Assembly: GCA_937896045.1 (NCBI GenBank) | Contig: CALBKY010000031.1 | Span: 1-50,324, forward strand | Source: an uncultured Bacteroidales bacterium | GTDB lineage: Bacteria; Bacteroidota; Bacteroidia; Bacteroidales; Paludibacteraceae | Length of the DNA stretch: 50,324 nt | Direction of reading: 5' to 3' | Shown here: piece after piece, positions 24,013 through 48,800 of the stretch | Layout of the letters: each line of letters starts with the position of its first letter | Numbering within the stretch: the stretch's first letter is position 1 | Position numbers and translations under genes: made by a program | The notes under the pieces: generated by a model | What the model was told of the DNA's origin: nothing | Databases searched by the model: none | What the model saw: only the letters and a program-made list of their open reading frames with translations

Positions 24013-24015
24013 GCC

Positions 24016-24828: not shown

Positions 24829-24882
24829 GAAATACCCCCTCGTATCTCCCCGAATTTTCGTTCCGATTATGTCGGGTCAAAC

Positions 24883-24926: not shown

Positions 24927-24960
24927 CCAACCCTAAATATGAGACCCTACCGAGCAAAAT

Positions 24961-25012
24961 TAACGGGAAATAAACGGCAATTAACGGAGCCTTTTTAATG
25001 GGTCTTTAATGG
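24961..25012 (+). repeat. 11-bp-phased TAACGG / TAATGG motif series
   Basis: AACGG at 24962, 24973 and 24983; TAATGG at 24996 and 25007. AATTCGTG repeats at 25036 and 25058 (22-bp spacing). Confidence 0.6.
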
Positions 25013-25193
25013 AGCCAAAAGCCGTTGTTGGAGAAAATTCGTGGTTAATTACACGGTAATTCGTGTTTGACCGGTTCTTCAGAGAATTGCGGTGGGGGCT
25101 TTCAGGCAGATTGGGGCTTGCATTTTGCAGGGTGATGTTGTTAAGTTAGAGTTAATTTTGTTGCCTACTCTTGCACATACGAAAACTTTTTCG

Positions 25194-25201
25194 TAACTTT
25201 G
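25194..25201 (+). promoter_or_regulatory. -7 promoter box TAACTTTG for the SusC/D locus
   Basis: TAnnTTTG match 69 nt upstream of the susC-like ATG. Confidence 0.55.
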
Positions 25202-25270
25202 TGGCGGAATAGGGAGGAAACGTGTTGTATATAATGTGTAAAATTTGAACAATAAACAAATCTGATATTT

Positions 25271-28351: not shown

Positions 28352-28387
28352 ACAACTATGACAATTCATTTAATAAGGAACAATAAT

Positions 28388-30244: not shown

Positions 30245-30276
30245 TTGTAAAACAGACTATGGCAATTTCTATGAAT

Positions 30277-31128: not shown

Positions 31129-31143
31129 TACGAAACCGAGAAT

Positions 31144-32805
31144 ATGAAACGTATATCGATAGCAATAATGGCAATCCTGCCGCTCTTCTTGGCAGGGTGC
31201 AAAGACCACATCATCAAAGAGGAGACACTCCCCGAAGGGGCTATCAACTTTGCCTATGAGGTCATCAACGATACGGTTTACAATCTGGACTACTATGCAG
31301 GTTGCACGGTGCGTTTCTACCCCACGGTAGCACTTACCACCGATTGCGATTGGCAAATCAGCGACGGTCGCTCTTTCACAGGAGTGGATACGCTGGTATG
31401 CAAGTTCCCTGTGGCAGGCAACTTCACGGTTACTGCTACAGCTAATGGCGGTAAGAAGACCAATCCTATTGAGATTGCGGACATACGTCCTATTGTGCGT
31501 ATCGTACAGACCGACTCTGTTTGTGTTGTGGATAGTTCGTATATCAGTTTCGATGTCGAGTTGCCGAACCCCGACAATTTGGAGGCTGTATATCAGTGGA
31601 CATTCCCCGGTGTGAAAGACGAGGCAGGACAGGAACTCTCTGTCTTCGAGGGACAAGACCCCGGCAAGATACGGTTCACCAAGTCAGGGTCTCAACCCAT
31701 CAAACTGCAGGTTCTGCTTGGTGGACGGGCATTGGACCTCGTAACACGCAATGTGCAGGTGGCTCTCAAAGACCCCGCTCCCACATTGTATTATGCCGTC
31801 AAGGAGGGCAACATCATGGCACGTAAACTGACCTCCGTTACAGGGGCGGAACCCTACAATATGGGGGTGGCTTCGGGAGAACATCCGTTCAACCTCTTGT
31901 TTGCAGAGTCATCTCTGTATATCCTGGATGCCGGCAAGCAGTTCAACTATGTCAACGACGAGAATGGCGTATTGGGCGATGGGCAAATCACAGTCATGGC
32001 AGCGGACGCATCTACTTTTTCCACTGTCATCAGCAACGTGGGTGGTCCTGCTTTCCAAGACCCGTTCTATGGGTGCATTGATGGTGGTAAACTTTACTAT
32101 TCTGACCGCAACACGGGTATCTTCTCCATACCTCTCTCCACGCGTAATCAGGTATGGAGCAAGGATGCTTACCCGTATTTCGTACAGAACGCGCAACTTG
32201 GCTACTACAGCCGTGGACTTTCCTATGGTGCTATCACGGGCTGCTTCGGCAAGGTGGAAGGCACTTGGTATTGGGCAAAAACATTCAATGGAAACGGTAT
32301 CTGGCGTTTTGTGGATGCCGACATTCTGCCAGATGCGAACTCTTACGAGAAAGCCACTGCACCTACGGCAGGTAGCATACTCACTTCTTTCTATACGAAA
32401 GCATTTGTGTACGATGCACAACGCAAAATGTTCTACTTCTCGCTCTACGATATGGCGGCAGGCGTGTATGGGTTGCCTTACGAGAAGGTGATAGATGCCG
32501 ACTTTATGAAGTCGTTGGCTTCTGCTTCCGACTTGGCTCCTTATCAGTTGGGCGACATCGCTATCACACCGATTGTGGAAAAAGGCAAAGGCGAAGGTTC
32601 CGATGGCGAATATATCGGTATATGCCAGATGGCTGTGGATGAGGCTACGGGAGATGTCTATTTCGCATATCGTGCAGCCGATAAGACGCAAAGTGGATTG
32701 TATCGCTACGACGCGGCTTCCAAGACGTTGAGCCTTATCGCCGACACACAGGGGACAGACATCTACGGTGTCGCTATCAACCAGCAGCCTACACAGTTGT
32801 TCTAA
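31144..32805 (+). CDS. Surface lipoprotein with a PKD-like Ig domain plus a beta-propeller-like C-terminal region
   Basis: Lipobox LAGC. A PKD-like stretch (FTVTATANGGKKTNP). Recurring blade-like motifs (LYYAVKEGNI, LYILDAG, KLYYSDRNTGIF, MFYFSLYD, DVYFAYR, GLYRYD). Confidence 0.8.
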   Translation: MKRISIAIMAILPLFLAGCKDHIIKEETLPEGAINFAYEVINDTVYNLDYYAGCTVRFYPTVALTTDCDWQISDGRSFTGVDTLVCKFPVAGNFTVTATANGGKKTNPIEIADIRPIVRIVQTDSVCVVDSSYISFDVELPNPDNLEAVYQWTFPGVKDEAGQELSVFEGQDPGKIRFTKSGSQPIKLQVLLGGRALDLVTRNVQVALKDPAPTLYYAVKEGNIMARKLTSVTGAEPYNMGVASGEHPFNLLFAESSLYILDAGKQFNYVNDENGVLGDGQITVMAADASTFSTVISNVGGPAFQDPFYGCIDGGKLYYSDRNTGIFSIPLSTRNQVWSKDAYPYFVQNAQLGYYSRGLSYGAITGCFGKVEGTWYWAKTFNGNGIWRFVDADILPDANSYEKATAPTAGSILTSFYTKAFVYDAQRKMFYFSLYDMAAGVYGLPYEKVIDADFMKSLASASDLAPYQLGDIAITPIVEKGKGEGSDGEYIGICQMAVDEATGDVYFAYRAADKTQSGLYRYDAASKTLSLIADTQGTDIYGVAINQQPTQLF

Positions 32806-32824: not shown

Positions 32825-35371
32825 TTGAAATCGAATAGATTCATATTAATCCTTGTACTGGCGAGTGTAGTGGTCTCTTCGTGGGCTGCTACGCCTTCGC
32901 CCAAGCGCGACTTTCGTGGTGCTTGGCTCAGTACCGTATGGGCTATAGACTGGCCCAACCATCGCGGTACCACCGAAGAGGATGTCAAAAGCCAAAAGGT
33001 GGAGATGCGCACTATTCTCAACAACTACGAGAAGTGCAATATCAACGCCTGCTTCTTCCAAGTGCGTGGTATGAGCGATGCTATGTATCGGTCCAAGTAC
33101 GAGCCATGGTCGCAGTACCTCACGGGCACCCGCGGACAGGAACCTACCTACGACCCCTTGCAGTATCTCATCGACGAAGCACACGCGCGGGGTATCGAGG
33201 TGCATGCGTGGCTCAACCCGTATCGTTATGCCACTTCGGAGGATAACTACGGCACCCTACCCACCGACTACTCGGTCACGCACCCCGATTGGCTCATCAA
33301 TTGTGGCGGCATCACCATTCTCAACCCTGGCGAACCTACTGTGCGCAAGCGTATCGTGGATGTGGTATGCGACATCATCGACAACTACGATGTGGACGGC
33401 ATAGTCTTCGACGACTATTTTTATCAGGATGGCATGAAGGACGAGTACGACGACCGTCTCTATGCCCTCTACAACCCCGACTCCCTCTCGCGTGCTGACT
33501 GGCGTCGTGCACAAGTCAACCTTATGGTGGCAGAGGTCAATGCGGCTATCAAGGCACGCAAGCCTTGGTGTCGTTTTGGCATTGGTCCTGCCGGTGTAGC
33601 GGCTTCCAACAAGGCAGTGGCAGACAAGTATGGCATCACACCTTGTCCCGCAGGCAGCGATTGGCAGTACAACCAAATATATGCCGAACCCGTTCAGTGG
33701 TATGTGGAGCATAGCCTCGACTACATCACACCGCAAGTCTATTGGACCATCGGCTCTGCTAACGACTATTCCAAGATTGCCCCATGGTGGTACGTGGTTG
33801 CCAACAAGTTCGGACGTCATTGCTATATCAGCCAGTCGCTTACAGCCCTGTCTCCTACCAAGACAATGCCTGCGGGTATTTCTGAGCGTGAGCGCATCGC
33901 TGCCGAGAGCCACAATACCAATTTCTATGCCGGCGAGATAGTCAATCAGATACTCCTTGACCACGCTTCTGCCAAAGAGAACGCCCCTGGCAGTGTGTTC
34001 TGGTCCACCAATAAAATTGCTGTAACGGGTTTTATCAAGAGCGTGGTACGTGATGCCTACACTCGCAAAGCCATTGTGCCTAACCTTACATGGTTCTTGC
34101 CTGCTGAGGTACAAGGCTTGGTCTCAGACCTCTCTCGCGAGGGACAAACCCTCTCTTGGCAATATGCCACCGAAGGGCAGCGTTTCGGTATCTATGCCAT
34201 GCCGCTGAACAAGCGACACGACACCAAAGCCCTCACCACATCGCTCTATTACCAAGGTATGACCTATGGCAATTCGTTCACGTTGGCAGATTCTATCACC
34301 TCCGACTATGCAGTGTGTGTCACGGTCATCGACCGTTATGGCAACGAGTATGCCCCGCGTTTCTTGGGTGAGGACGTGCAGAATGCAGTAGCCCCGAAAC
34401 TACTATCGCCCGCCGATGGAGATAGTATTCTCCTCCCCAACTACCTGTCGTGGGAGGCAATACCGGACGCTATGGGCTATCAGGTTGAGGTGGCGTATGA
34501 TGAGGCATTCACTCGCCTCATCGCTACCGTCCCCACAGACACCAATGCTTTCCTTACGCAATCCGTTCAGGAGATAGACGGACATTCCACCTGCTATTGG
34601 CGTGTACGCGCTATGGTGCCCAATAGCCCTTCCGTTTATTCTGAGGTGCGTTCTTTCCGCGGACGGCTGTTCTCTGTAGTATATCCGCAAGATGGCGAGT
34701 CGGGAGTCCCTGTTACGCCCACTATCCGTTGGGACAATGCCATAGAGGGAGCGGAATACCACGTACAGATAGCCTCTGCCGCTACTTTTGCTGACAAGGA
34801 AATTGTCTTCTCTGCTACCACGTATGACACCCAAGTCTCCATCCCTGAGGATATCCTTACTTACGGAGCCAACTACTATGTGCGTGTGCGTATTCTCACG
34901 GGATATATTGATGTAACCTCCACCCCGAATCTCTTCACTACTGAGGAGGTCGTTATGGTGCCGCCTGCTGTGCTTACTCCGGAGGCGAACTCCACAGAGC
35001 AAGGCGACTCGGTACTGGTATCGTGGAGCAATACACCCAACAACGGTTTCCGTCTTGAGTGGGCAAACTCCTCGTCTTTCCCTAACCGCGGCAAGAAAGT
35101 CAAATCGGTGGATATGGGCAACTATCAATGCCGCATCGGCGGTCTCACCCAAGGCACATGGTACCTGCGTGTGGCTACTATCCGCATCGACAACACATGG
35201 ACAGACTACAGCGATGTCGTTTCTTTCAACTATGAGCCGGGTACTGGAGTGGACGAGGTGCATATCGACCTCTCCTCTTCACCATGCTACGACCTGCAAG
35301 GGCGATTGGTAGGAGAACCGCAATCGGGACATATCTATATCCAAAATGGCAAACTAATATACCAACAATAA
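32825..35371 (+). CDS. GHL10 (DUF187, YddW/DigH-like) glycosyl hydrolase with Ig/FN3-like domains and a T9SS-type C-terminal tag
   Basis: RDFRGAWLSTVWAIDWP...VHAWLNPYR is typical of the glycoside hydrolase-like 10 family. The C-terminus is YDLQGRLVGEPQSGHIYIQNGKLIYQQ. TTG start, with signal peptide ILILVLASVVVSSWA. Confidence 0.8.
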   Translation: MKSNRFILILVLASVVVSSWAATPSPKRDFRGAWLSTVWAIDWPNHRGTTEEDVKSQKVEMRTILNNYEKCNINACFFQVRGMSDAMYRSKYEPWSQYLTGTRGQEPTYDPLQYLIDEAHARGIEVHAWLNPYRYATSEDNYGTLPTDYSVTHPDWLINCGGITILNPGEPTVRKRIVDVVCDIIDNYDVDGIVFDDYFYQDGMKDEYDDRLYALYNPDSLSRADWRRAQVNLMVAEVNAAIKARKPWCRFGIGPAGVAASNKAVADKYGITPCPAGSDWQYNQIYAEPVQWYVEHSLDYITPQVYWTIGSANDYSKIAPWWYVVANKFGRHCYISQSLTALSPTKTMPAGISERERIAAESHNTNFYAGEIVNQILLDHASAKENAPGSVFWSTNKIAVTGFIKSVVRDAYTRKAIVPNLTWFLPAEVQGLVSDLSREGQTLSWQYATEGQRFGIYAMPLNKRHDTKALTTSLYYQGMTYGNSFTLADSITSDYAVCVTVIDRYGNEYAPRFLGEDVQNAVAPKLLSPADGDSILLPNYLSWEAIPDAMGYQVEVAYDEAFTRLIATVPTDTNAFLTQSVQEIDGHSTCYWRVRAMVPNSPSVYSEVRSFRGRLFSVVYPQDGESGVPVTPTIRWDNAIEGAEYHVQIASAATFADKEIVFSATTYDTQVSIPEDILTYGANYYVRVRILTGYIDVTSTPNLFTTEEVVMVPPAVLTPEANSTEQGDSVLVSWSNTPNNGFRLEWANSSSFPNRGKKVKSVDMGNYQCRIGGLTQGTWYLRVATIRIDNTWTDYSDVVSFNYEPGTGVDEVHIDLSSSPCYDLQGRLVGEPQSGHIYIQNGKLIYQQ

Positions 35372-35398: not shown

Positions 35399-37882
35399 AT
35401 GAAAAGACTTTGTACAATGATGGCGGCTGTCTTGGTGGCTGCAATGTCATTTGCTGACGTGGAGTATGAACTCAACGGAGGTTGGACCAACGATGACGGT
35501 TGGCAAAATAAGCAAGACATTTATGAGACAATGAACCAAATGTGGAATAAGTATGCAGATATCAAAGAGGATGCAGCACATTACACATGGACTCCAATTG
35601 ACTCCTGTAAGGCTGTCAACGAGGGACTTCCTACTGCTACCGATGGAACTGTGTTGACCCCAAAATTCCTGGAGTTTTTCAATGAAGCAACGACCTTAGA
35701 CAAATTCCAATGGTTGGCAGATTATATGCAATATGTATGTACACTTCAGAAAGTGGAAGCAGGTCTGTTGAAAGAAGGTAATGGTGCTTTCTTACGCTAT
35801 AACCTGCAAGCATTCTTTATGAATACCCAACGCACTTCTTGGCCTGTTTCGGCTAACTACGAGGCGTATGGCAATATCGACTATTTCCAAGCCTATTGGA
35901 GACACGGCTTTGCCAACCCCACCAAGGTAGAGGGCGAGTATATCCTCCAAGCACCTTACAAAGAAACCACCGACGAAGCCACGGGGGCTATCGTTAAATG
36001 GACTTTTGATGGCTGGTATGCGGACAAGGACTTCAAAGGTAATAAAGTCCTGAAAATTGATGCCAATACTACAGGTACTCTCTATGCAAAATGGGTAGAG
36101 TACATTCCTACTATCGCAGAGGTTAGTGCTATGACTGACGGAACTTCTACCAAAATCAAGGCTACTATCACGTTCTTCGATGGCGTAGAGGCGTATCTTC
36201 AAGACGCTACCGCCGGTATGCGTGTCATTTTCCCCGCTGATACCAAGTTAGCGGAGAACACCCTGTATGTTGTCAAGGGAACCAAAGGAACCGAGAATGG
36301 TGCTCCTGTACTTACTGTTACCGAGATTGAGTCGCAAGAGGCTGCTTCTGCTATTGTGCCTATCGTGGCAGACCAAGTTCGTTTCTTGCCCGACTATGTA
36401 GGCATGCTCATCAAATTGGAGGGTAAGCGTGTTGCCGGTTATTCTGCAGATGGCGACCCGCTCTTCCGTGACGACTTCGATACGATTCCTACTTTCAAAT
36501 TGCCTGTTGACCAAAATACGTTCACTATCCGCCGCAAAACGGATGTCACTGGTGTGGTAGAGCGTATGGCTCCCTATGTGGCTGGCACCGACTCTTTGAG
36601 TGGCCTCCGTATCCGCGCCTTTATGAAGAATGTAACCCCTTCTGCTCCTGCAGGCCGCGACAAACACGAGTACGAGACATTGAACACCAATGGTGGTGAG
36701 TACACACTCGTTAACGATTGGATGTTCTCGGTACAAGAGGACAACTTCAACTCCAACAAACCTAACGACATCGCCTCGGGTAGCCGTGCTGTAGTTCTCC
36801 ACAATGGCTTCTTGTACTTCCCGAACCGCGATGCTAACCAACCTTCTTATGTTAACTTCAAGAAAGTCAATGTGGCTGATGGCGATATGTTCGATGCTAT
36901 TCCTGCCGCTGATTATCTGTTCCGCGCACGTGGAATCGCAGGTCGCGACTTCGTCTTCGGTCCTGCCAATGACCTCAAGAAGGACAACGCAGATCACGTA
37001 TTGGCTGCCAACCTCATCACAAGTGCCAAAGGCGAGTACCAAGTTTGGGTAATGGACGACATTGACAATGGCAAGGGCTACCTCCTCATCAACGACACCA
37101 CACTCAACGATGATTATTCTACGAACGCCACTATCCGTTTTGATGCGTTTGGCGTCTATGGTGATGTTACCAAGGACGCTACTGTCATGGCTGCCAGTGC
37201 TTCCACTTCGGATGTGTACTACTGGCAAATCAAAGATGGTAAGTGGGATGGTAAGCACGAGTGGATTCCTACAGAGGGTGGCTACAATTTCAGTTATGCT
37301 CCTCAAATCTTCCCGATTGAGAACGATATGTTCTATGTGGATGGCTTCAACAACTATCCTATCCTCTTCAATACGGACGGTGAGGCACTTGACTTCTTCG
37401 ATATGGAAGATGAGATTTGCAAGGGATTGGTTACCAACCGCAACGGCAAGGCGCGTGCTACCGGTCATAACGGTTTGGCTGAGTTCGAGTTGGATGGCGA
37501 ATACTTCCTTCTCATCGCAGGAAACAATACCGCAGGAGACCCTGCTTCTACATTCGTTCTCTACAAGTGTAAAGACGGGAACCGTACCTTCAACGAAATG
37601 ACCCAGATGTGGGAGTTCCCCTACGACGGTATGGGTGGTGTCAGCAACGATGTGCGTACCGCTGTGCCGTATGTGCAAATCGTGGACGAACACACCGCCA
37701 AGTTGTGCGTTTACACCAACAACAACGGCTACGGCGTTTACACCTTCACAGCCAAGGCTGGCACGGGCGTTGAGAACACCAAAGTTGAGACTGTTGGTGC
37801 CGACAAGCAGATGATTGACGGACAACTCTATATCATCCGCAATGGCGTTCGCTATTCCGTTATGGGTAGCGTAGTGAAATAA
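35399..37882 (+). CDS. Secreted protein: split Listeria-Bacteroides repeat module, OB-like domain, propeller-like domain, C-terminal tag
   Basis: Signal peptide. VEYELNGGW ... WTFDGWYADKDF...GTLYAKW brackets an inserted segment of about 130 aa that is shared with the 45833 gene. The C-terminus is DGQLYIIRNGVRYSVMGSVVK. Confidence 0.8.
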   Translation: MKRLCTMMAAVLVAAMSFADVEYELNGGWTNDDGWQNKQDIYETMNQMWNKYADIKEDAAHYTWTPIDSCKAVNEGLPTATDGTVLTPKFLEFFNEATTLDKFQWLADYMQYVCTLQKVEAGLLKEGNGAFLRYNLQAFFMNTQRTSWPVSANYEAYGNIDYFQAYWRHGFANPTKVEGEYILQAPYKETTDEATGAIVKWTFDGWYADKDFKGNKVLKIDANTTGTLYAKWVEYIPTIAEVSAMTDGTSTKIKATITFFDGVEAYLQDATAGMRVIFPADTKLAENTLYVVKGTKGTENGAPVLTVTEIESQEAASAIVPIVADQVRFLPDYVGMLIKLEGKRVAGYSADGDPLFRDDFDTIPTFKLPVDQNTFTIRRKTDVTGVVERMAPYVAGTDSLSGLRIRAFMKNVTPSAPAGRDKHEYETLNTNGGEYTLVNDWMFSVQEDNFNSNKPNDIASGSRAVVLHNGFLYFPNRDANQPSYVNFKKVNVADGDMFDAIPAADYLFRARGIAGRDFVFGPANDLKKDNADHVLAANLITSAKGEYQVWVMDDIDNGKGYLLINDTTLNDDYSTNATIRFDAFGVYGDVTKDATVMAASASTSDVYYWQIKDGKWDGKHEWIPTEGGYNFSYAPQIFPIENDMFYVDGFNNYPILFNTDGEALDFFDMEDEICKGLVTNRNGKARATGHNGLAEFELDGEYFLLIAGNNTAGDPASTFVLYKCKDGNRTFNEMTQMWEFPYDGMGGVSNDVRTAVPYVQIVDEHTAKLCVYTNNNGYGVYTFTAKAGTGVENTKVETVGADKQMIDGQLYIIRNGVRYSVMGSVVK

Positions 37883-37902: not shown

Positions 37903-37968
37903 TTATCGAGTCTTTATCGGGTTATTAACGGGTTGTTATCGGGTTATTAACGGGTTGTTCCCGTGAGC
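37903..37968 (+). repeat. 11-bp-period array TTATCGGGTTA / TTAACGGGTTG (22-bp unit x2 plus degenerate flanks)
   Basis: Read directly in the 134-bp gap between the 35399 gene and the first NAGPA gene. Confidence 0.85.
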
Positions 37969-38016: not shown

Positions 38017-40368
38017 ATGAAGCGAATACTGCATCTATTCACCCTCACCCTGTTACTTCTGCCCTTATCCCTAAGGGCGGAGGTAACGTTGGGTGGTAGT
38101 GCTTATACCGTAGATACCCTGACCCGCTATATGGTGGGTCCGGGTACTTACTATACCCAAGTGCGTCTCTTCCTGAGTGACGGCGGAGGCAGCAGACGCG
38201 ACGTTTATATCCTCCAAGTGGACCGGCGCAATCCCTATGTGTCTGTCCATACCGTCCTTGCCAACGACTCTATTGAGAAGGGAGAAGAACCCTCCCACAT
38301 GGCGCAGCGTAAGTCCCAAGCGGGGCAACGTTATTTTGCCGGTACCAATGGCGACTGGTGGTCCACCGACCGACCTGGCGTACCCGAAGGTGCCTTCGTT
38401 ACCGAAAACACTATTGCCATCACGCCCCAGAACGGGCGTGCCACCTTGGCTATGTGCGCTATTGACCAAAACGATAGCCTCTACTACGGACACGATTTCT
38501 TCACCGATGTCTGGCTTGAAACTGACAACAACTCAGTCCGTTGCTCACATGTCAATGACATTCGCTATGAGAACGAACTGGTCCTGTATAACTCCTACAA
38601 CGGCACTTGCACTCACACCGACAATAGTGGTACCGAGGTGCTATGCCGTATCCTCCCTGGCTCCGCTTGGGGTACCAATACCACCCTTCAAGCCGAAGTG
38701 GTGCGTATCGAATCAGCCAAAGGCAATATGCATATCGAGGACGGTTGCTTCGTCCTCTCTGCCCGTGACGATATGCAGCAGCATCTCAAAGCCCTCACCG
38801 AGGGACAGCAAATACGCCTGCGGATAGCCACTTCTATCAATGGCACCTATGCCGACTTCAAGGCTGCCCTTGGCGGGCAGGACCGCACCTTCATGCTGGT
38901 CAATGGCGTAGTGGACAACAACTGGGACGAACGTCATCCCCGAACGGGACTCGGATTCTCCGTTACGGGTGATACTATCATACATTGTGTGGTTGATGGG
39001 CGTGGCAAGTCCATCGGTGCCACTACGGGCGAATTGGCGGAAATCATGCAGTTCTTTGGTGCCTACAATGCCATGAATATGGAGGGCGGTGGCTCCAGTA
39101 CTATGTACCTGGCCTCGCACGGAGTGATGAATGTCCCCTCCGACGGACACGAGCGTGCCGAGTCCCAAGGTATATTTGCTGTCAGCAGTGCCCCTGATGA
39201 TGAGGTGGTTGCCAAGATAGCGGTCTACGAACCCTCTGTATCTATGCCCCGATATGGTATGTTGCGCCCTCGTTTCTTGGGCTACAACCAATACGATATG
39301 CTCCTCAACACTGACCAACAGGGTGTTACCCTTTCATGTGACCCCGCTGTCGGATACATTGATGCCGAAGGGCGTTTTGTCTGCCAAGGCTCTGGTGACC
39401 TTGTAGCCTCGTTGGGCAATATCCGCACAACGTTGCATATCACTATGGTGGCAGACGCTCCTATTGCTGTTCGTCTTGACTCAGTTCTTGTCTCCGACGA
39501 GACGCAGTACCCCATTGAGGTGGACGGTATCATCGGAAACAACTCCATTACACTCCAACCGGAAGCCCTCACATGGACGGTGGCTGACCCCGCTGTTGCG
39601 GTAGTCTCCGAGCGGGGTATCCTTACGGGGCTTGTAAATGGCTACACCGCTGTGGTTGGGCAACTCGGTGAGTTCGCCGACACCATCCTTGTACATGTGC
39701 AGAACGTGGACGCCAAACCCTGTCATTGGGTGCTTGGCATGCAGGATATGACCCTCAAGCCTTCTTCCTCTGCGTGGAAAGCGCAGATGGTGGACACTAT
39801 GGATGCGCAAATCCTATCGTTGAACTATACGGGTGGACGACAGGCAAACATCAAGTTCCTTGCCGACCGGCTCATCTACTCTGACCCCGACTATCTCGAA
39901 CTCCGCTTCACGCCGCAAGATAACTTAATCCAATCGGTTACTATTGGTGTCCGTGCCAATGGCAGCACCAAGACCTTGCTTCATAGCACCACAGACCTGC
40001 AAGCAGGGCTAATCAACCGTTTGGTGGTTGATCTCGACAGCATCTTTCGCGCAGATGCCCTTGCTTCCGAACAAGAGTGGCGCGACAACGACCAGGCCAT
40101 CTATCCCGTCCGTCTTGAGTTCGCTACGTTTGCTTTCAGCAAAGATGCTGCCAAGCAGCAGTATCGTATTCCCATTGATGGTTGGTATCTCCATTTCGGA
40201 GAGGTGGCACCATTGCCTTCAGGTGTAGTTCCTGTCTCGGCGGATACTGCTATGACAGATGTCTGCAAGGTGTGTACCGCTGGGGGCATCCTTATTCGTA
40301 AAGGCAATAGATGGTTTGATATATTGGGACGCCCTGTAGAAGAAGTTAATAGTATTATAAAGTATTGA
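38017..40368 (+). CDS. Phosphodiester glycosidase (NAGPA/DUF2233 family) with a Big_2 domain and C-terminal tag, paralog 1
   Basis: FAGTNGDWW, HPRTGLGFS..DTIIHCVVDGR and NMEGGGSSTMY motifs. Big_2-like ALTWTVADPAVAVVSERGILTGL. Signal peptide. Confidence 0.8.
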   Translation: MKRILHLFTLTLLLLPLSLRAEVTLGGSAYTVDTLTRYMVGPGTYYTQVRLFLSDGGGSRRDVYILQVDRRNPYVSVHTVLANDSIEKGEEPSHMAQRKSQAGQRYFAGTNGDWWSTDRPGVPEGAFVTENTIAITPQNGRATLAMCAIDQNDSLYYGHDFFTDVWLETDNNSVRCSHVNDIRYENELVLYNSYNGTCTHTDNSGTEVLCRILPGSAWGTNTTLQAEVVRIESAKGNMHIEDGCFVLSARDDMQQHLKALTEGQQIRLRIATSINGTYADFKAALGGQDRTFMLVNGVVDNNWDERHPRTGLGFSVTGDTIIHCVVDGRGKSIGATTGELAEIMQFFGAYNAMNMEGGGSSTMYLASHGVMNVPSDGHERAESQGIFAVSSAPDDEVVAKIAVYEPSVSMPRYGMLRPRFLGYNQYDMLLNTDQQGVTLSCDPAVGYIDAEGRFVCQGSGDLVASLGNIRTTLHITMVADAPIAVRLDSVLVSDETQYPIEVDGIIGNNSITLQPEALTWTVADPAVAVVSERGILTGLVNGYTAVVGQLGEFADTILVHVQNVDAKPCHWVLGMQDMTLKPSSSAWKAQMVDTMDAQILSLNYTGGRQANIKFLADRLIYSDPDYLELRFTPQDNLIQSVTIGVRANGSTKTLLHSTTDLQAGLINRLVVDLDSIFRADALASEQEWRDNDQAIYPVRLEFATFAFSKDAAKQQYRIPIDGWYLHFGEVAPLPSGVVPVSADTAMTDVCKVCTAGGILIRKGNRWFDILGRPVEEVNSIIKY

Positions 40369-40373
40369 TACGT

Positions 40374-42695
40374 ATGAAGAAAAATCTACTCATTGCATTC
40401 TCTCTGCTGTTTATCCCCGCTCTTCTGTGTGCACAATCCACTATCACGTTGAGCGGCGTGCCCCATACCATAGATACGTTGGAGACTTTCCAATGTGGTC
40501 CTGGCAGTCAGTACATCTCAGTCCGTATGCACCGTGTCAGTGACGGTGGCGGACGCTTGGACGCTTTCCTTATGAAAGTGGATGCCAACAACCCCTATAT
40601 ATCATTCGAAGAGGTCATGGGCGGCGACAAACTCGTGGGTACCGAGGCGGTATCCGCTATGGGTGCCCGCAAAAACAAGGAGTCCGACAAGCGTATCTTC
40701 TTTGGCGGAACCAATGGCGATTTCTTCTCCACCAAAGGCGATGTAGGACTGCCTATTGGCTTTGCTATTATCAACAATGAGTTTGCCCGTGTCCCTGACA
40801 ACCGTGGAGACCGTCGTCTGGGTGCTATCAACGAGCAGATGCGTGGTGCTATAGGCAGTGTAGGCGCATTTTCGGGACAAGTCATCTATGGCACAGACAC
40901 GATGAAGTTGCACCATATCAATTACAACAGAGGCGATGACCAATTGGTTCTGTTCAACCGCCACCATGGTCCCTCTACCAATACCAACGAATATGGCACG
41001 GAACTCCTTCTCGCTCTCGCCGAGGGAGACGCTTGGCATACCAACTGTACCGTACACGCTGTAGTACTTGCCAAAGAGCAAGACAAAGGTAATATGACGA
41101 TTCCCGATGGGCAGACAGTGCTCTCTGCACATGGCACCATGGCAGAGCACCTCAATGCCGTCAATATAGGTGATACACTTACTGTCAAACTCACGTTTAA
41201 GATTGATGGCGTTAAGCAGAACATCAGCCAGTGTATAGCGGGTGACAACTACGCCCTCATTGTGGACAACGGGAAAGTGGTAGAATCCAATTTCTGGAAC
41301 GAACTGCACCCGCGTACAGCCTTCGGGCAGTCTGTAACAGGCGATACCATCATCTTCTGTGTGGTGGACGGACGTCATCTCTCTATTGGCTGCAACACGC
41401 AAGCACTTGGCGGTATCATGCATTACTTTGGTGCCTACAAGGCTCTCAACTGGGACGGCGGAGGTAGCAGCCACCTTTGGCTCAACAATGTCGGACTTAT
41501 GAATGCAGGTTGCGAATCTACAGAGCGTGCCGTTGCCAATGGTATGTTCGCCGTAGCAAACCTGCCCGAAGTGGACAATACCATATCGCTCCTGCAAGGC
41601 TATTCTACAGAACTGCGACTTCCTAAGTATGGTGTACACAAGCCCAAAGTGCTGGGCTACAACAAGTATGGTGTGCTTCTCAATCCCGATGTACAGGGTG
41701 TTACACTCTCATGCGACCCTGCAGTGGGCTACATCAATAGCGATAGTGCTTTTGTCTGCTTGGGTGAGGGTGAATTGCGTATGCAGCAGGGCAATGCCTC
41801 GGGTGTGGTTCGTATCCGCATAGTCCCCAATACAGACATCCGCATGCGACTTGACACCGCCGTAATCTACGACCACTCCGACTATCCTGTGGAAGTTATC
41901 TCCACCATAGGCAAGAACGATATCCTTATTCAGCCGTCTGCGCTTACATGGGCGGTGGCAGACCCGACTATAGCCGCTATCACGGAAGATGGCATCCTCA
42001 ATGGCCTCAGAGACGGCATTACCGAGGTCTATGGTACTCTCGACGGACATATAGACACTCTTGCGGTTCGTGTAGCAATACCTGCCGCAAACCCCTTGCA
42101 TTTTGACGACTTTGTGCAGGGTTACTCCTCGCGTTGGACATTGAAAGCGTCCAATACAAAGTGGAACGCTGCCATAACACCGGATGCAGAAGGCAAGGCT
42201 GTTCTCTCTATGGATTATACGGCGGGGCGCAATGCCAACATACGTCTTGCCTCCGGACAACCTCTCTTCTCCGCGCCTAATGATTTCCGTTTCTGCTTCA
42301 CACCGCAGGGCGACCTTATCAAGTCGGTGTCTGTCGGTCTGCGTGCCAACAATGCAAGTCGCAACACCATCTACTCCGTTGAGAACATTGCTCCTGACAC
42401 ACCTATGACCATCAATATCCCGTTGGATAGCCTGTTCGGTGTGAAGAAAGACCTCTCTATTTACCCTGTAACTGTTGAGTTCATTACATTCTATCTCAAT
42501 GCCGATGCGGAGAAGAAAAAATACAACATTCCTGTTGATGGCATCTACCTCACCTACAATGGTGCATCGGAATCTGCGGTGGAGAATACTACTGCACATA
42601 GGAATGTCAAAACCACCAAGTTCATACAAGACGGGCAACTCTATGTCATCCGCAACGGACAAATATACAATATCTTAGGAACCAAAGTAAATTAA
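40374..42695 (+). CDS. Phosphodiester glycosidase (NAGPA/DUF2233 family) with a Big_2 domain and C-terminal tag, paralog 2
   Basis: Same architecture and colinear similarity to 38017-40368 (FGGTNGDFF, HPRTAFGQS..DTIIFCVVDGR, NWDGGGSSHLW). I prefer the ATG at 40374 to the TTG at 40365. It ends DGQLYVIRNGQIYNILGTKVN. Confidence 0.8.
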   Translation: MKKNLLIAFSLLFIPALLCAQSTITLSGVPHTIDTLETFQCGPGSQYISVRMHRVSDGGGRLDAFLMKVDANNPYISFEEVMGGDKLVGTEAVSAMGARKNKESDKRIFFGGTNGDFFSTKGDVGLPIGFAIINNEFARVPDNRGDRRLGAINEQMRGAIGSVGAFSGQVIYGTDTMKLHHINYNRGDDQLVLFNRHHGPSTNTNEYGTELLLALAEGDAWHTNCTVHAVVLAKEQDKGNMTIPDGQTVLSAHGTMAEHLNAVNIGDTLTVKLTFKIDGVKQNISQCIAGDNYALIVDNGKVVESNFWNELHPRTAFGQSVTGDTIIFCVVDGRHLSIGCNTQALGGIMHYFGAYKALNWDGGGSSHLWLNNVGLMNAGCESTERAVANGMFAVANLPEVDNTISLLQGYSTELRLPKYGVHKPKVLGYNKYGVLLNPDVQGVTLSCDPAVGYINSDSAFVCLGEGELRMQQGNASGVVRIRIVPNTDIRMRLDTAVIYDHSDYPVEVISTIGKNDILIQPSALTWAVADPTIAAITEDGILNGLRDGITEVYGTLDGHIDTLAVRVAIPAANPLHFDDFVQGYSSRWTLKASNTKWNAAITPDAEGKAVLSMDYTAGRNANIRLASGQPLFSAPNDFRFCFTPQGDLIKSVSVGLRANNASRNTIYSVENIAPDTPMTINIPLDSLFGVKKDLSIYPVTVEFITFYLNADAEKKKYNIPVDGIYLTYNGASESAVENTTAHRNVKTTKFIQDGQLYVIRNGQIYNILGTKVN

Positions 42696-42703: not shown

Positions 42704-45700
42704 ATGAAACGTATCTTTACTCTTTTTGCCTGCACGGCTCTCTGTATCTTTGCTAATGCCGACATCCGTGTTGTCAGCAATACCTCACTTGGCAAGGGCT
42801 ACTATCCCCGTTTTGCAGACGACCAAACCATCACCTGTTTCTCCGAGGAGAACGCAGGCTACGATGCTGTCATCTCTGGTGAAGCCCTGCGCGTGGACAA
42901 CGAGGACCTTACCCTCAACCTCTACCGCAACGGTGTCAAGACCGTCCTCACACCTCACGGCACCGATGTCAACTATATCTGGGCATCGCTTTCGCCTAAC
43001 AAGCAGTATATCCTGTTCAATACCATGCGTGGTACCGCTGTCTGCGACCTACGCGGGCGTGAGATTATCAACTTCGGTAAGGGCTTGGATGCCCCCGTAT
43101 GGTATGGCAACGACTACATCGTAGGTATGAACGACTGCTCCGACAGCCACCAATATACGGCATCGTCTATCGTCATTGCCTCCATAGATGGCACCATACG
43201 CCAAACACTCACCGACCCCGCAGAGTTCGGTATGTACCCCGCAGTGGACGCAGTCTCAGGACGCATAGCATACAACACCCTTGATGGTGACATCCGTATG
43301 CTCCAACTCAACCTCACCGAGCAACCCGTTCGCCGTCAAGCACCTGCGCTCAAGACACTACGCGACTCACGCTCCAAGATGTTTGCTGCGCAGCGTCGTC
43401 GCGCGGCAACCGATGCCAAGCCTTCCGATTTCCGTATCTACATCAATCCGGGGCACGGCGGATACACCAGCGACGACCGCAATATAGTTATCTATCCTTT
43501 TGCACAGGGTGATACCCTTGGTTTCTATGAGAGTACTTCCAACCTCCACAAAGGTCTCAAACTTGATACCATGCTTCGTGAACTCGGCTTCCAAACCAAG
43601 ATGTCGCGTGTGCTCAACCGCGAGATTGACGACCGCGAACTCTCGGCTATCGTAGAGGAAGCCAATGCATGGAACTCCGACTATATGCTCTCCATCCACT
43701 CCAATGCGGGCGGACCGTCCAACTATGTCCTCATGCTCTATGCTGGTATCGACCTTGATGACACGCAGCAGACGTATCCTACACCCACTCCCTGTTCCGA
43801 TGAGAGCCGCGAAATATCTACCCTTATAGGCAACTATTTCTGTGAGAACGGCATCACTACTTGGACATCTTCTGTGCCTCGTATCGCCGGTGACAAGACT
43901 TTCGCCCGCACCGCCATGGGCTGGAGCAACGGTTATGGTGTCCTCCGCGGTCTCCGCGTACCGGGTGTTATCTCCGAGGGCTGTATGCATGACTACCACC
44001 CCGAGACCTATCGTCTCATGAATATGGACTACAAGTACAAGGAGTCTTTCTATTTCCGCAAGGTCTTCCTCGAGTATTTCTGCCATACAGGTATGCCCAC
44101 GGGTGCTATCGGCGGTCAAGTGCGCGATGCATTCAACAAGATGCTCTTCCCCGCTATCACCAAGATTCGTAACTCGCGCGACGAACTCCTGCCCATCGAC
44201 CGTGCTACGGTTGACTTGCTCAAGGATGGTAAGAAAATTGCTTCTTATACCACCGACACCCTCTACAATGGTGTGTTCTTCTTCTGGGATTTGGAGCCGG
44301 GCGAATATACCCTCCATGCCGATGTGGACCACTACTACACTATGGACACCACCATCACCGTCGTGGCGAACACCATCGTTTACCAGGACATGATGCTCCA
44401 GATGCGCCGTGAGACACGTCCCGAGGTCACTTCCTACAGCCCCAACGTTGCCATTACCGACAGTGTCAACGTGGCTGAACCTATCATCCTCAATTTCAAT
44501 TGGGATATGTGGGAAGAGCCTACTCGCAAGGCATTCTCTATCTCGCCCGCTGTTGAGGGGACCCTCACTTTCGAGAACTCGCAGCGCACCCTCCGTTTTA
44601 CCCCCAAGACTGTCTATGCGCCCGACACTGAGTACACCGTTACCCTTGTCAAGACGGCGGCACACCCCGATACCAACTACCCCAACACCCTTGCCGAGGA
44701 CTTCACTTTCCGTTTCCGCACCAAGAACCGTCCTTGCCTGAGCGTCATGCAGACCTATCCCGCAGAGGGCGAAACGGGCATAGACCTCAAGCCGTCTATC
44801 TTCATGCTCTTCGATGAGAAACTGCACTCGGCATCTAATTACAAACTTTTCTCCATTGCCAACGATAGCAGTGTTGTCTTTGTACCTGCTTCCCGCAACT
44901 TCAAGAAGAACACCGTGGATGCTCCCTATGGCTCTGTGAAAATTGATGTTACCACCGAGTTGCAGCCCAATACGCAATACAAAGTGGTAGTCGAACCTAC
45001 TGTCAAGGATACCGACAATATCATACTCTCCACTCCCTTTGTCTTGAATTTCACTACCGGTAGCGGAGCCGTAGCGGACAAGGAGGGTGAACTCATCATG
45101 TCCCTCGATGATGTAGCCTTCTCCGTAGAGCCTGATAAGACGACGGCACTCCAAGACAAGACGATTCGCACCGGTGGTTCTACCAAACGCACCGAGGGTA
45201 CAGGTTCCAACGATATTATCTATACGTTTGACCCCGACGAACCCGATGCGCAACTATTCCTCAAGCCGCTTGACCTTACGCATATATTCACTTCGCGCGA
45301 CAAATTGGTCATAGATATCTATGGTGATTTTACCATGAACGATGTCTATGCCGAGTTCTCCACTGCGGGCGATATCCATACCTACAAACTCTGCAACCTC
45401 GACTTCATAGGTTGGAAGACTGTCACGCTTGATTTGAGCCAAACCGACCTCCCCGTGGGTGTGGACTTCCAGTTCACTGGGTTGAGTATCGTACGTACCT
45501 CCGTGCAGCCAATCCTTTGCAACACAGGCGAAATCTTCCTCGACCGTCTCGCTATTGTCAAGGGACAAAACACCGCAGTGGATGATGCCCCACAAACCGA
45601 TTCTGCTAATGCGGCAACCTACGACCTCTTGGGGCGTCCTGCCACCGCGAAGCAACCCCGTCAGGTGTATATCCAAAACGGAAAGAAACATATTATTAAC

Positions 45701-45706
45701 CAATAG
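42704..45706 (+). CDS. Multidomain N-acetylmuramoyl-L-alanine amidase (Amidase_3) with a propeller-like N-terminus, CarboxypepD_reg-like and SbsA-Ig-like domains, and a T9SS-type tag
   Basis: Amidase_3 core at about 43430-44000 (IYINPGHGG...LSIHSNAG...GVISEGCMHDY). The C-terminus is YDLLGRPATAKQPRQVYIQNGKKHIINQ. Confidence 0.8.
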   Translation: MKRIFTLFACTALCIFANADIRVVSNTSLGKGYYPRFADDQTITCFSEENAGYDAVISGEALRVDNEDLTLNLYRNGVKTVLTPHGTDVNYIWASLSPNKQYILFNTMRGTAVCDLRGREIINFGKGLDAPVWYGNDYIVGMNDCSDSHQYTASSIVIASIDGTIRQTLTDPAEFGMYPAVDAVSGRIAYNTLDGDIRMLQLNLTEQPVRRQAPALKTLRDSRSKMFAAQRRRAATDAKPSDFRIYINPGHGGYTSDDRNIVIYPFAQGDTLGFYESTSNLHKGLKLDTMLRELGFQTKMSRVLNREIDDRELSAIVEEANAWNSDYMLSIHSNAGGPSNYVLMLYAGIDLDDTQQTYPTPTPCSDESREISTLIGNYFCENGITTWTSSVPRIAGDKTFARTAMGWSNGYGVLRGLRVPGVISEGCMHDYHPETYRLMNMDYKYKESFYFRKVFLEYFCHTGMPTGAIGGQVRDAFNKMLFPAITKIRNSRDELLPIDRATVDLLKDGKKIASYTTDTLYNGVFFFWDLEPGEYTLHADVDHYYTMDTTITVVANTIVYQDMMLQMRRETRPEVTSYSPNVAITDSVNVAEPIILNFNWDMWEEPTRKAFSISPAVEGTLTFENSQRTLRFTPKTVYAPDTEYTVTLVKTAAHPDTNYPNTLAEDFTFRFRTKNRPCLSVMQTYPAEGETGIDLKPSIFMLFDEKLHSASNYKLFSIANDSSVVFVPASRNFKKNTVDAPYGSVKIDVTTELQPNTQYKVVVEPTVKDTDNIILSTPFVLNFTTGSGAVADKEGELIMSLDDVAFSVEPDKTTALQDKTIRTGGSTKRTEGTGSNDIIYTFDPDEPDAQLFLKPLDLTHIFTSRDKLVIDIYGDFTMNDVYAEFSTAGDIHTYKLCNLDFIGWKTVTLDLSQTDLPVGVDFQFTGLSIVRTSVQPILCNTGEIFLDRLAIVKGQNTAVDDAPQTDSANAATYDLLGRPATAKQPRQVYIQNGKKHIINQ

Positions 45707-45832: not shown

Positions 45833-48800
45833 ATGAAGAAAATCTTTAGTCTCCTTGTTGTCGCTTTGGCAACAATGACGCTCTCCGCGCAGACCTTCAA
45901 GGTCACGTGGAATCTTGATGGTGGTTGTGCTAACCCGATGTGTGCTAACGACAAAGATGAGTTGTATAGTGCACTCAATGCAGACGTGAACGCCTTTTAT
46001 GGTTGGACTGCTGATTGGGGCAAGGTAAGCACATTTACCGCCGTTACAGAAGGTATGCCCTCTAAGGCAGGAAAATTTGACCTTACATTCTTTGCTGACC
46101 CTGCAATGAAGAATAAGTGGGGTTGGTTGCTTGACTATTGTGATGCGACTTGTGCTTCTCAAAAGGTAGGTGCAGATGGTAAAGACCTTGTTGCTCCGAG
46201 CAGCAATGCAAGTTATATGCGCTACAACATCAATGCGTTCTTCACCAACTTGGTACGTGCTAGTTGGCCGGTGTCCGCAGATTATAAGGATTGTGGTGTA
46301 GATGCTACAGATAAATGGATGGCGGCTTGGAAATATACATACAACTATCCCGAAGAAGTTGCTGCTTCCTATATATTGCCTACACCTATTAAAAAAGGTT
46401 ATACATTCCTTGGTTGGTTCAATGGTGAGAACAAAGTGGAGGCTATCTCTGCAGACACTGCTCTTACTGCTAAATACGAGGCTATTCAGTACAAGGTTAC
46501 TTGGGACCTCAATGGCGGTGTTTCTTCTTTGCTGAAAGGCTTAGACAAGGACGCTTTGTATAGTGCACTCAATGCAGACGTGAACGCCTTTTATGGTTGG
46601 ACTGCTGATTGGGGCAAGGTAAGCACATTTACCGCCGTTACAGAAGGTATGCCCTCTAAGGCAGGAAAATTTGACCTTACATTCTTTGCTGACCCTGCAA
46701 TGAAGAATAAGTGGGGTTGGTTGCTTGACTATTGTGATGCGACTTGTGCTTCTCAAAAGGTAGGTGCAGATGGTAAAGACCTTGTTGCTCCGAGCAGCAA
46801 TGCAAGTTATATGCGCTACAACATCAATGCGTTCTTCACCAACTTGGTACGTGCTAGTTGGCCGGTGTCCGCAGACTATAAAGATTGTGGTGTGGATTCA
46901 GAGGGGTGGAAATCTTATTTGGAGTTGCCTGCTACTGTTACAATTGACCAAACACTACCTACTCCGTACATGCTGGAATACAATTTCTTGGGTTGGTACA
47001 ATGGCGATACAAAGATTGAACATGTGGATGCGGATATGACTCTTACAGCAAAGTGGGAGCGTGCTATCTACAATGTAACATTTGTTGCTCCATTTGCATA
47101 TCCTAACCCGTTGTTTGCTGGTAACAAGGATATGATGTATGCAGAACTCAATGCAGATTACAACACATTCTATGGAGTAGAAACCGATTGGGGTGTATTG
47201 AGTACGTTTACTGCTGTTACAGAAGGTATGCCCTCTAAAGGTGGCAAGTTAGACCTCACTTTCTTCGCAGATAGTATGGTGGTTGATGGAGCAAAGACCC
47301 TCAATCCGATGAGTGTTAAATGGGGCTGGTTGCTTGAATACTGTGACTCTATTTGCGCTCGCCAAAAAGTAGGTGCAGATGGTAAAGACTTGGTTCTTCC
47401 GAGTACCAATGCAAGTTATGCACGTTACAATGTGAATGCGTTTTTCACCAACTTGGTACGTGCTAGTTGGCCGGTGTCCGCAGACTATAAGGATTGTGGT
47501 GTGGATGCAAAGGACCAAGAATGGAAGAAATTCTGGGGCTATGATTTTGTAATGCCGGACACCATTGTAGAGGACTACACTCTGCCTGTTATGTATCGCA
47601 AAAACTACGAGTTCAAGGGCTGGTATTGGAGCGAAGATTTCTCTGGAGACGAGGTGAAAGTAGTTCCTGTTAAGACGAATGGTTCTGTATATGCTAAATT
47701 TGAGGCTACAGATAAAGCACTTCTCGGTATTGCTCTTGACAAGAAAGATACAGTAGAGTTGCAAATGCCTGCAACTGACCAACTGACGGTTATCTACACT
47801 CCGGAAACGGCAGTTAATAAGAAAGTTGTTTGGTCTTCTTCCGACGAGAACGTATTGGTTGTTGACCAAAATGGTCTGGTGACACCTATGGCTCCCGGTA
47901 AAGCAACGATTAAGGTGGTATCTGACGAAAGCAAATTGGAGGCTTCTGTTGTTTACAACATCACTGCAGCCCCGGGTGCTGTCACAGGTGTTACGCTTGA
48001 CCAAACAAAGGTTACTTTGGATATGGGCAAGACGCTTCAACTCACTGCTACCATCGCTCCTGAAGATGCTACCAACAAGAAAGTTAATTGGACTTCCGAT
48101 AGCAAGGCGGCTTCTGTGGACGAGAACGGTCTTGTTAAGGCTGATACTATAGGTACTGCTACTATTACTGTTACTACTGAGGATGGTGGCTACACTGCTA
48201 CTTGCGTGGTTACCGTTCCTGAGCCTCTTGATGACATCGTTGTAGAGAAACTTTGGGAGGTTGCTATTCCTTCTACTGTGGCAAACATTGGTGATGTACG
48301 TAATGGTATGGGTTGGAATGGCAAATTCTATCTAACAGATAAGAAACAAAACAAGATTCGTGTGTTCTCTCAAGCAGGTGAAGATGCTGACGCTGCTATT
48401 CCTATGGCAGAAGGTGCTAATCTGGGTACAGGTATTGCTATTGATGACGCAGGAAACATTATCGTAAATGCAAACTTCCCGAGCGCAGATACTTGTGTTT
48501 ATATTGTGAAGAATGGCGAAACCAAGATGACAAAGATAGACTTTGCTTCTATGGGTGGTCGTTGTGACCATATCACTGCCTTTGGAGATGTGTTCTCTGA
48601 AGAAGGTGGATTAGTATTCTTCTATGCTCAAAACAAGGGACCTCAATATGTGAAGATATCCAAAGGTGAATTTGTGAAGAAAGATACCATAAAGGGAACA
48701 TTTACTCATAGTTCACAAGGACAAGCCCAAATTATTTATGGAACAGAAACAGAGTGTATTGCAAGCCAACGCGGTTCATTTGAGCATATGGTTGACGGAA

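Follow-up and report, generated by a model that had tools for sequence, protein, structure and literature searches.

What two neighboring proteins of the NAGPA family do in a locus whose other recognizable enzymes all act on peptidoglycan or on N-acetylmuramic acid (MurNAc) is the question raised by contig CALBKY010000031.1 (assembly GCA_937896045.1) of an uncultured Bacteroidales bacterium of the Paludibacteraceae. The whole stretch of 50,324 nucleotides (nt) that was analyzed is called the window here, and the two genes are designated NAGPA1 and NAGPA2. The only reaction proven for the family is cleavage of the C1-O bond in N-acetylglucosamine (GlcNAc)-alpha-1-phosphate diesters (PMC13474241). 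NAGPA was found to be a core part of a conserved locus in which a SusC/SusD pair, an amidase and a GHL10 enzyme accompany genes for MurNAc catabolism. With chances put slightly below even, and by analogy with the known enzyme, it is proposed that exported NAGPA would strip anchored polymers from bacterial walls, so that the amidase and the GHL10 enzyme could reach the glycan.

The NAGPA Proteins and Their Fold

An earlier reading of this DNA, made from the sequence without database searches (the sequence-only reading), had described two colinear tandem paralogs of 783 and 773 amino acids (aa). Both open reading frames (ORFs) proved intact, with 5 nt between them, and BLASTP aligned their products colinearly over the full length at 39% identity (E 3e-179). 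For NAGPA2, an alternative TTG start three codons upstream of the ATG would give 776 aa. The catalytic region of the DUF2233/NAGPA type that had been read from the sequence was borne out by the Pfam family NAGPA (PF09992), which scored 91.8 bits in NAGPA1 (E 7.5e-26) and 80.4 bits in NAGPA2 (E 2.4e-22) against a gathering cut-off of 25. The motifs GTNGDWWST/GTNGDFFST, HPRT...GDTII.CVVDGR and GGGSS are all present, and an NCBIfam scan returned no match for either protein.

A model of NAGPA1 was obtained with AlphaFold2 (AF2) from an alignment of 66 sequences, with a mean predicted local distance difference test score (pLDDT) of 87 and a predicted template-modeling score (pTM) of 0.70; its C-terminal tail is poorly predicted. 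The fold of NAGPA2 is taken from this model through the colinear identity of 39%. When the model was compared with the PDB by Foldseek, the bacterial DUF2233 structures 6ozd, 5h3k and 3ohg ranked first (probability 1.0), and every vertebrate NAGPA structure (6pku, 6pky, 6pkg and 6u11) was also returned with probability 1.0. The template-modeling scores on the target were 0.71 for 3ohg and 0.58-0.68 for vertebrate NAGPA. A sequence-profile search led to the same proteins, matching 3ohg at E 2.4e-22 as well as vertebrate NAGPA.

NAGPA1 consists of a signal peptide, a catalytic domain (residues ~21-390), two immunoglobulin (Ig)-like domains (~396-565), a beta-sandwich (~569-726) and a short C-terminal tail, and NAGPA2 has the same architecture. 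A Big_2 domain and a C-terminal beta-sandwich had been expected in both. The former agrees with a sub-threshold Pfam match to a Big-like domain (519-563), with precomputed PF02368 matches in orthologues and with Foldseek matches of the model to LigA Big_2 and Big_2-CBM56 structures; the latter agrees with the strands predicted at 569-726 and with Foldseek matches to sandwiches of the carbohydrate-binding module (CBM) type.

Active Site and Divergence of the Two Copies

In human NAGPA, GlcNAc-1-phosphate is held by a strictly invariant DGGGS loop (residues 286-290), in which D286 contacts the sugar, and the phosphate is held by R316 and T260; D286A served as a catalytic mutant (PMC13474241). 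Profile alignment places HPRT, DGR and (D/E)GGGS of the bacterial proteins opposite RTAIG, DGQT and NLDGGGS of the vertebrate ones. NAGPA2 keeps the canonical loop, and NAGPA1 carries glutamate in the place of D286. Judged from its spacing, R380 of NAGPA1 (in an ER pair after a PSD motif) is probably the counterpart of the phosphate-binding R316. NGD, W303, HPRT, VxDGR, N354, GGGSS and E379-R380 are invariant across 66 homologues.

The glutamate is a property of a clade. All 19 NAGPA1 orthologues, which range down to 46% identity, have EGGGS, and 43 other homologues have DGGGS; a second small clade also has EGGGS. Forty-six positions show a residue that is invariant in the NAGPA1 clade but uncommon in other homologues; all of them fall at residues 48-384, that is, in the catalytic domain, and none falls in the C-terminal 400 residues. 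The E-type copy always stands beside a D-type copy, in either order (in the window and in the related loci L001, L002, L003 and L160). This pattern fits a duplicated enzyme with a retuned active site. The suggestion of the sequence-only reading that the two copies differ in linkage specificity is thereby supported, both by the clade-fixed change from aspartate to glutamate and by the confinement of the differences to the catalytic domain, and the EGGGS and DGGGS copies probably accept different anchor or repeat sugars.

Export Signals

Inspection of the N- and C-termini revealed a signal peptide and a C-terminal tail on the GHL10 enzyme, an 827-aa protein, NAGPA1, NAGPA2 and the amidase. Because of these signal peptides and export tails, both NAGPA proteins are expected to act outside the cell. 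The sorting tag announced by the earlier reading stood in part: a short C-terminal tail of ~25-35 aa is present, but the sorting domain of the type IX secretion system (T9SS; PF18962), expected to span ~70-100 aa, gave no match in NAGPA1 or NAGPA2 at E <= 0.01. Orthologues in Paludibacteraceae carry a full PF18962 domain where NAGPA1 and NAGPA2 carry the short tail. From these termini we infer that both are exported via the T9SS, with the short tail replacing the domain of the orthologues, and the short tails are possibly a shortened sorting signal in this lineage.

Tails were compared among the ORFs at 3006-5210 and 45833-50230 and the five proteins with signal peptides named above. Type 1 (...DGQLYIIRNGxxYxxxGxxVK) was seen in five window proteins, in degenerate form in NAGPA1, and type 2 (...YDLxGRxxxxxxxxxxYIQNGKxxxxQ) in GHL10 and the amidase; neither type is recognized as PF18962.

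Conservation of the Locus

Two surveys were made. An alignment of NAGPA was run against 185,579 species genomes, followed by tblastn with the window proteins; in metagenomes, a SusD alignment served as the query and yielded about 40 further loci of more than 12 kb with the gene order of the window. Related loci, cited here by L numbers, were compared within 10-kb flanks around the matched gene.

The gene order of the window recurs in about 50 genome and metagenome loci. As far as the contigs reach, the order [SusC-]SusD-lipoprotein-lipoprotein-GHL10-827-aa protein-NAGPA (one or two copies) is kept in L001-L012, and in L016 without GHL10; the carriers are Paludibacteraceae, Muribaculaceae and uncultured Bacteroidales. 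Of the 12 closest genome loci, ten (L001-L010) have an Amidase_3 gene after NAGPA, and the contigs of the remaining two stop before that point; L160 has it as well. Twenty-two metagenome loci extended 2.5 kb or more past their last GHL10 or 827-aa gene, and 20 of them contain NAGPA. Among the 34 loci having at least 2.5 kb upstream of SusC, MurQ was found just before SusC in 18 and MurK in 22. NAGPA is thus a core part of a conserved locus, and the conserved synteny makes its tie to MurNAc catabolism real in terms of gene context.

In the searchable literature, no paper combined the phrase "peptidoglycan utilization" with SusC/SusD and no SusC/SusD locus for peptidoglycan was found; the locus is apparently a conserved, hitherto undescribed utilization locus of Bacteroidales of a peptidoglycan type. 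Cultures fed with peptidoglycan were reported to be dominated by novel anaerobic Bacteroidetes (PMC7511781).

Some variants were encountered. L121, L130, L145 and L153 have two or three tandem GHL10 genes, with no NAGPA seen within the recovered stretch. L118 (651-12394) corresponds to window positions 19317-31128: its glycosyltransferase (GT2), NagB/PIG-L, MurK and MurQ are 98-100% identical to those of the window, and its SusC, SusD and next lipoprotein are 59%, 50% and 34% identical. It is a divergent allele of the locus type at the same chromosomal site of a near-identical strain. L001 (CAVGOI010000005.1) is labeled "Mycobacteriaceae bacterium" yet carries a locus of the Bacteroidales type, with 57-60% identity to the window for NAGPA1 and the amidase and 35-47% for the other genes; this bin is probably mislabeled or contaminated.

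The Link to MurQ

The sequence-only reading had proposed that NAGPA could yield MurNAc-6-phosphate (MurNAc-6-P), the substrate of a MurQ encoded 13 kb upstream. The etherase itself was confirmed by its TIGR00274 match, 13.2 kb upstream. The gene before it encodes a kinase with ~298 bits to 8ow9 ("Putative novel MurNAc kinase") and 8oqw ("ATPase") versus 217 bits to the GlcNAc kinase 8oqk. A divergently oriented fusion of glucosamine-6-phosphate deaminase/isomerase (NagB) and a PIG-L de-N-acetylase would finish the route from MurNAc through GlcNAc-6-P to fructose-6-phosphate, and it is kept beside MurK-MurQ in L080, L083, L088, L090, L117, L118, L135 and L146. The GT2 gene that adjoins this block in the window is kept there in L080, L083, L088, L090, L101, L117, L118, L122, L145, L146 and L153.

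On wall anchors, the NAGPA product would chemically be MurNAc-6-P, but as a residue within an extracellular polymer. MurQ is cytoplasmic, and no phosphosugar transporter was found among the locus genes. Because a MurK-type kinase adjoins MurQ, free MurNAc is presumably imported and then phosphorylated inside the cell, and the substrate of MurQ is already accounted for without the NAGPA product. The import of extracellular MurNAc-6-P as such was rejected on these two grounds, the missing transporter and the neighboring kinase. What stands of the proposed tie is the shared pathway and the conserved gene context; direct channeling from the one enzyme to the other is weak, given the export of NAGPA as well.

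Genes of the Locus and a Candidate Operator

Between 20.8 and 45.7 kb the order is NagB/PIG-L fusion (minus strand), MurK, MurQ, SusC, SusD, two lipoproteins, GHL10, the 827-aa protein, NAGPA1, NAGPA2 and the amidase (Table 1). From SusC to the amidase the genes are co-oriented with intergenic gaps of at most 134 nt, and the amidase gene starts 8 nt past NAGPA2.

Table 1. Positions of the NAGPA genes, their loops, the neighboring genes and the repeat arrays (window coordinates unless a related locus is named).
Feature	Position	Strand	Remarks
NAGPA1	38017-40368	+	783 aa, ATG start, intact ORF; Pfam PF09992, AF2 model, Foldseek
EGGGSS loop of NAGPA1	39082-39099	+	Residues 356-361; Glu where human D286 stands
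NAGPA2	40374-42695	+	773 aa from ATG, intact ORF; architecture as NAGPA1; canonical DGGGSS loop
DGGGSS loop of NAGPA2	41454-41471	+	Residues 361-366
GT2 glycosyltransferase	19317-20741	-	474 aa; adjoins NagB/PIG-L-MurK-MurQ block
NagB/PIG-L fusion	20803-22794	-	GlcN-6-P deaminase/isomerase + de-N-acetylase; PF01182 + PF02585; divergent from MurK
MurK-type MurNAc kinase	22953-23900	+	PDB 8ow9, E 8e-88; start probably near codon 30
MurQ MurNAc-6-P etherase	24016-24828	+	TIGR00274, 316.8 bits versus cut-off 302 (equivalog threshold passed)
SusC-like TonB-dependent transporter	25271-28351	+	Plug and CarbopepD_reg_2 domains
Divergent SusD-like lipoprotein	28358-30244	+	Orthologue profile versus PDB 3p1u, E 1.5e-16
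Two lipoproteins	30235-32805	+	297 and 553 aa, each with a lipobox Cys; located where surface glycan-binding proteins usually stand; conserved synteny
GHL10 enzyme	32825-35371	+	848 aa, secreted; Pfam PF02638, E 4.5e-58; PDB 5oq2 (Cwp19), E 1.8e-70
827-aa secreted protein	35399-37882	+	Usually directly upstream of NAGPA; AF2 pLDDT 88.6; conserved synteny
22-bp perfect tandem repeat (two copies)	37914-37959	+	Contains two ATTAACGG boxes; in the 134-bp gap before NAGPA1
N-acetylmuramoyl-L-alanine amidase	42704-45706	+	1000 aa, secreted; PF01520 (Amidase_3), 40.8 bits (cut-off 27); Big_5
Arrays in related loci	L080 6613-6641; L118 6230-6259, 6464-6492; L001 7516-7534; L002 7181-7267; L161 2-20		

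The SusD-like protein was not detected by single-sequence scans with Pfam and NCBIfam at E <= 0.01 and, as judged from the orthologue profile, is a divergent SusD subfamily specific to this locus type. Neither of the two lipoproteins matched Pfam or NCBIfam, and a PDB sequence search with the 553-aa protein was empty. The GHL10 protein gave no NCBIfam match, and its Pfam family presumably includes E. coli DigH/YddW. DigH/YddW degrades peptide-free glycan strands (PMC12288456), and Cwp19 of C. difficile, the PDB match of the window protein, is a peptidoglycan lytic transglycosylase (PMC6016235). For the 827-aa protein, Pfam, NCBIfam and PDB sequence searches were all empty; its model comprises a helical domain, a Listeria-Bacteroides repeat, barrels and a C-terminal beta-propeller, with 4ftd (DUF4623) as the best fold match. 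Since only a generic beta-propeller and DUF4623 were recognized, this protein accounts for neither the phosphatase nor the glucosaminidase that the locus lacks. A PDB sequence search with the amidase was also empty. A 1465-aa Big_2 protein encoded downstream (45833-50230) was considered as a further member and rejected, not being conserved in related loci.

No hybrid two-component regulator and no extracytoplasmic function (ECF)/anti-sigma regulator adjoins the locus in the window. A candidate for a shared operator of SusC and NAGPA1 was recognized in the form of short repeats. Besides the two ATTAACGG boxes before NAGPA1, two stand upstream of SusC at 24959 and 24980 (span 24959-24987), so that all four exact boxes of the 50-kb window sit in these two intergenic gaps; shuffled sequences would be expected to hold 1.25 matches. 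In close relatives, positions of the same two types hold arrays of TTAACGG every 10-11 bp, and TTTAATGG repeats often come after them.

Bacterial Homologues in Other Contexts

NAGPA domains of other bacteria occur fused to further domains. A Paenibacillus homologue combines NAGPA with a purple-acid/calcineurin-type phosphoesterase and three S-layer homology (SLH) domains, a Nonomuraea homologue with a Metallophos domain, a homologue from an Oscillospiraceae genome with SLH domains, and a Phascolarctobacterium homologue has an N-terminal AMIN domain. The calcineurin-type module of the Paenibacillus fusion is of the ShfP kind; ShfP was predicted by its authors to act on (lipo)teichoic acid, and fusions of ShfP-type domains to NAGPA were noted in that work (PMC11488536). 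In another published survey, predicted conflict proteins were described in which NAGPA is joined to TelC, cell-wall-binding and NlpC/P60 domains. The fusions in Gram-positive and Negativicute homologues tie the bacterial NAGPA domain to the wall and to phosphoester chemistry. In the searchable literature, neither a characterized bacterial NAGPA/DUF2233 enzyme nor an enzyme that cleaves a wall-polymer anchor was found.

Proposed Role and Alternative Explanations

The most general sugar-1-phosphodiester in Gram-positive walls is the GlcNAc-1-P-6-MurNAc anchor, through which teichoic acids, rhamnopolysaccharides and other polymers are attached. Stripping of wall polymers is the simplest role for NAGPA, because the locus is otherwise devoted to peptidoglycan, and we infer the following for the substrate, the bond and the succession of steps. 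NAGPA1 and NAGPA2 would be exported accessory ("debranching") enzymes of a locus that digests the peptidoglycan of other bacteria. They would hydrolyze the glycosidic C1-O bond of the sugar-1-phosphodiester, as the uncovering enzyme does, freeing the wall polymer and leaving a 6-phosphate on MurNAc. The stripped wall would then open to the amidase, which would remove the stem peptides, and to the Cwp19-like GHL10 enzyme, which would cut the glycan. Fragments would enter via SusC/SusD, and free MurNAc would be phosphorylated by MurK, converted by MurQ and carried on to fructose-6-P by the NagB/PIG-L fusion.

A bolder version of the same idea, which must be regarded as doubtful, is that these would be the first enzymes to sever specifically the universal phosphodiester anchor to MurNAc that LytR-CpsA-Psr (LCP) transferases make for teichoic acids, rhamnopolysaccharides and capsules (a "wall-uncovering enzyme"), in a widespread, undescribed Bacteroidales locus for eating, and perhaps killing, Gram-positives, with DGGGS and EGGGS tuned to different anchor sugars.

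Several points weigh against the stripping of anchored polymers. Gram-negative peptidoglycan lacks such anchors. The substrate is deduced from a relative less than 20% identical, as the searchable literature offers no activity of a bacterial NAGPA. Human NAGPA binds a terminal GlcNAc at the base of its pocket (PMC13474241); in an anchor, O4 or O3 of the GlcNAc is taken up by the polymer, which would call for a site of the endo type. With phosphate remaining on O6, a lytic transglycosylase could still not close the 1,6-anhydro ring at that MurNAc, and the locus contains no recognizable phosphatase; an alkaline phosphatase gene (12071-13573, minus strand), a candidate for the missing activity, lies ~11 kb upstream of SusC, outside the 10-kb flanks of the compared loci. 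Finally, L084 and L103 have no NAGPA within 2.5 kb downstream.

Of the alternatives, the main one, although unlikely, is that NAGPA depolymerizes polymers with a sugar-1-phosphate backbone, such as teichoic acids of the poly(GlcNAc-1-P) or poly(hexose-1-P) type or phosphate-linked oligosaccharide pellicles, which would unmask peptidoglycan without producing MurNAc-6-P. Wall and capsular polymers with sugar-1-phosphate repeats do exist, and the same family chemistry would suffice. The fusions to phosphoesterase and SLH domains in Gram-positive homologues suggest a bulk sugar-phosphate polymer as substrate, and two diverged catalytic domains would suit different repeat sugars. However, only a minority of Gram-positives make such polymers; the anchor is general, and the near-universal presence of NAGPA in a peptidoglycan locus better fits a general feature of the wall.

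It is less probable still that the NAGPA domains have another activity or none, as peptidoglycan glycosidases or carbohydrate-binding domains, with the EGGGS copy perhaps catalytically impaired. The locus has one recognizable glycan-cleaving enzyme and no glucosaminidase, NAGPA1 replaces the very residue whose exchange gave the human catalytic mutant, and no bacterial member of known activity was available from the literature for comparison. Yet the remaining active-site motifs are invariant in both clades; the change to glutamate is conservative, is shared by all orthologues down to 46% identity and also arose in a second clade, a pattern pointing to selection on function; and peptidoglycan bonds are beta-linked, whereas the prototype acts on an alpha-GlcNAc-phosphodiester.

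A similarly small chance is given to the view that the locus is mainly a weapon, its exported enzymes lysing Gram-positive competitors, with NAGPA removing the teichoic-acid shield and nutrients as a secondary gain. The export signals on the amidase, GHL10 and both NAGPA proteins would serve this purpose, and in published surveys NAGPA domains appear alongside TelC and NlpC/P60 in predicted conflict systems; the replacement of SusC/SusD and enzyme genes by a divergent allele in the near-identical strain L118 is what an arms race predicts. The tight linkage to SusC/SusD import and to MurK/MurQ/NagB catabolism argues instead that the products are consumed. This view concerns purpose rather than chemistry, and it can be compatible with the stripping of wall polymers.

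Host, yeast or dietary phosphoglycans (GlcNAc-P-Man glycoproteins, phosphomannans) as targets, with incidental peptidoglycan neighbors, are very improbable: although they include the only substrate proven for the family and gut metagenomes supplied the closest relatives of the window, the order of NAGPA with amidase, GHL10, MurK and MurQ is kept in different families and habitats, among them genomes whose names refer to digester and permafrost sites, and the locus has no mannosidase or other glycoprotein-degrading gene.

Significance and Comparison with Known Systems

In the laboratory, the sugar-1-phosphate anchor of wall polymers is cleaved with acid or hydrofluoric acid (HF). If wall polymers are indeed the substrate, these enzymes would allow teichoic acids and wall polysaccharides to be released intact under gentle conditions, might sensitize Gram-positive pathogens to lysins, and would provide a first function for the large bacterial NAGPA/DUF2233 family. 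The locus itself would explain the recycling of bacterial walls, a large flux of carbon and nitrogen, by anaerobic Bacteroidales in guts, digesters and sediments.

The window proteins share with human NAGPA (the uncovering enzyme) the Pfam family, the fold, the RT, DG and (D)GGGS motifs and the probable phosphate-binding arginine. They differ from it in sequence (less than 20% identity), in lacking a propeptide and an EGF stalk, in a larger catalytic domain (~370 aa) that precedes Ig-like modules, a beta-sandwich and an export tail, in the EGGGS loop of NAGPA1, and in a context of peptidoglycan rather than lysosomal targeting. The best sequence and fold matches are the bacterial DUF2233 structures BACOVA_00430 (3ohg), BPSS2145 (6ozd) and Slr0280 (5h3k), which were deposited without function assignment; 3ohg is a single domain of 285 aa. 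Enzymes of the GlpQ, PhoD and ShfP families act outside the cell on phosphodiester wall polymers, as NAGPA would, and ShfP-type domains are fused to NAGPA in Paenibacillus; these enzymes carry out metal-catalyzed P-O cleavage of polyol phosphates, whereas NAGPA-type chemistry breaks the C1-O bond of the sugar, so that a phosphomonoester stays behind.

With the MurNAc salvage of Tannerella forsythia (MurT-MurK-MurQ, NamZ1/2, AmpG) the locus shares a MurK-type kinase directly upstream of MurQ, and T. forsythia scavenges foreign peptidoglycan (PMC5790795, PMC7670621), as the carriers of this locus would. Unlike that system, the locus of the window has no MurT, NamZ or AmpG, and its kinase and etherase are joined to SusC/SusD and to exported enzymes including NAGPA. 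It resembles the Sus-like polysaccharide utilization loci of Bacteroidota in its SusC/SusD pair, surface lipoproteins, exported degradative enzymes and adjoining cytoplasmic catabolic genes, and departs from them in its predicted substrate, the bacterial cell wall, and in having an amidase, GHL10 and NAGPA in place of the classical glycoside hydrolase families.

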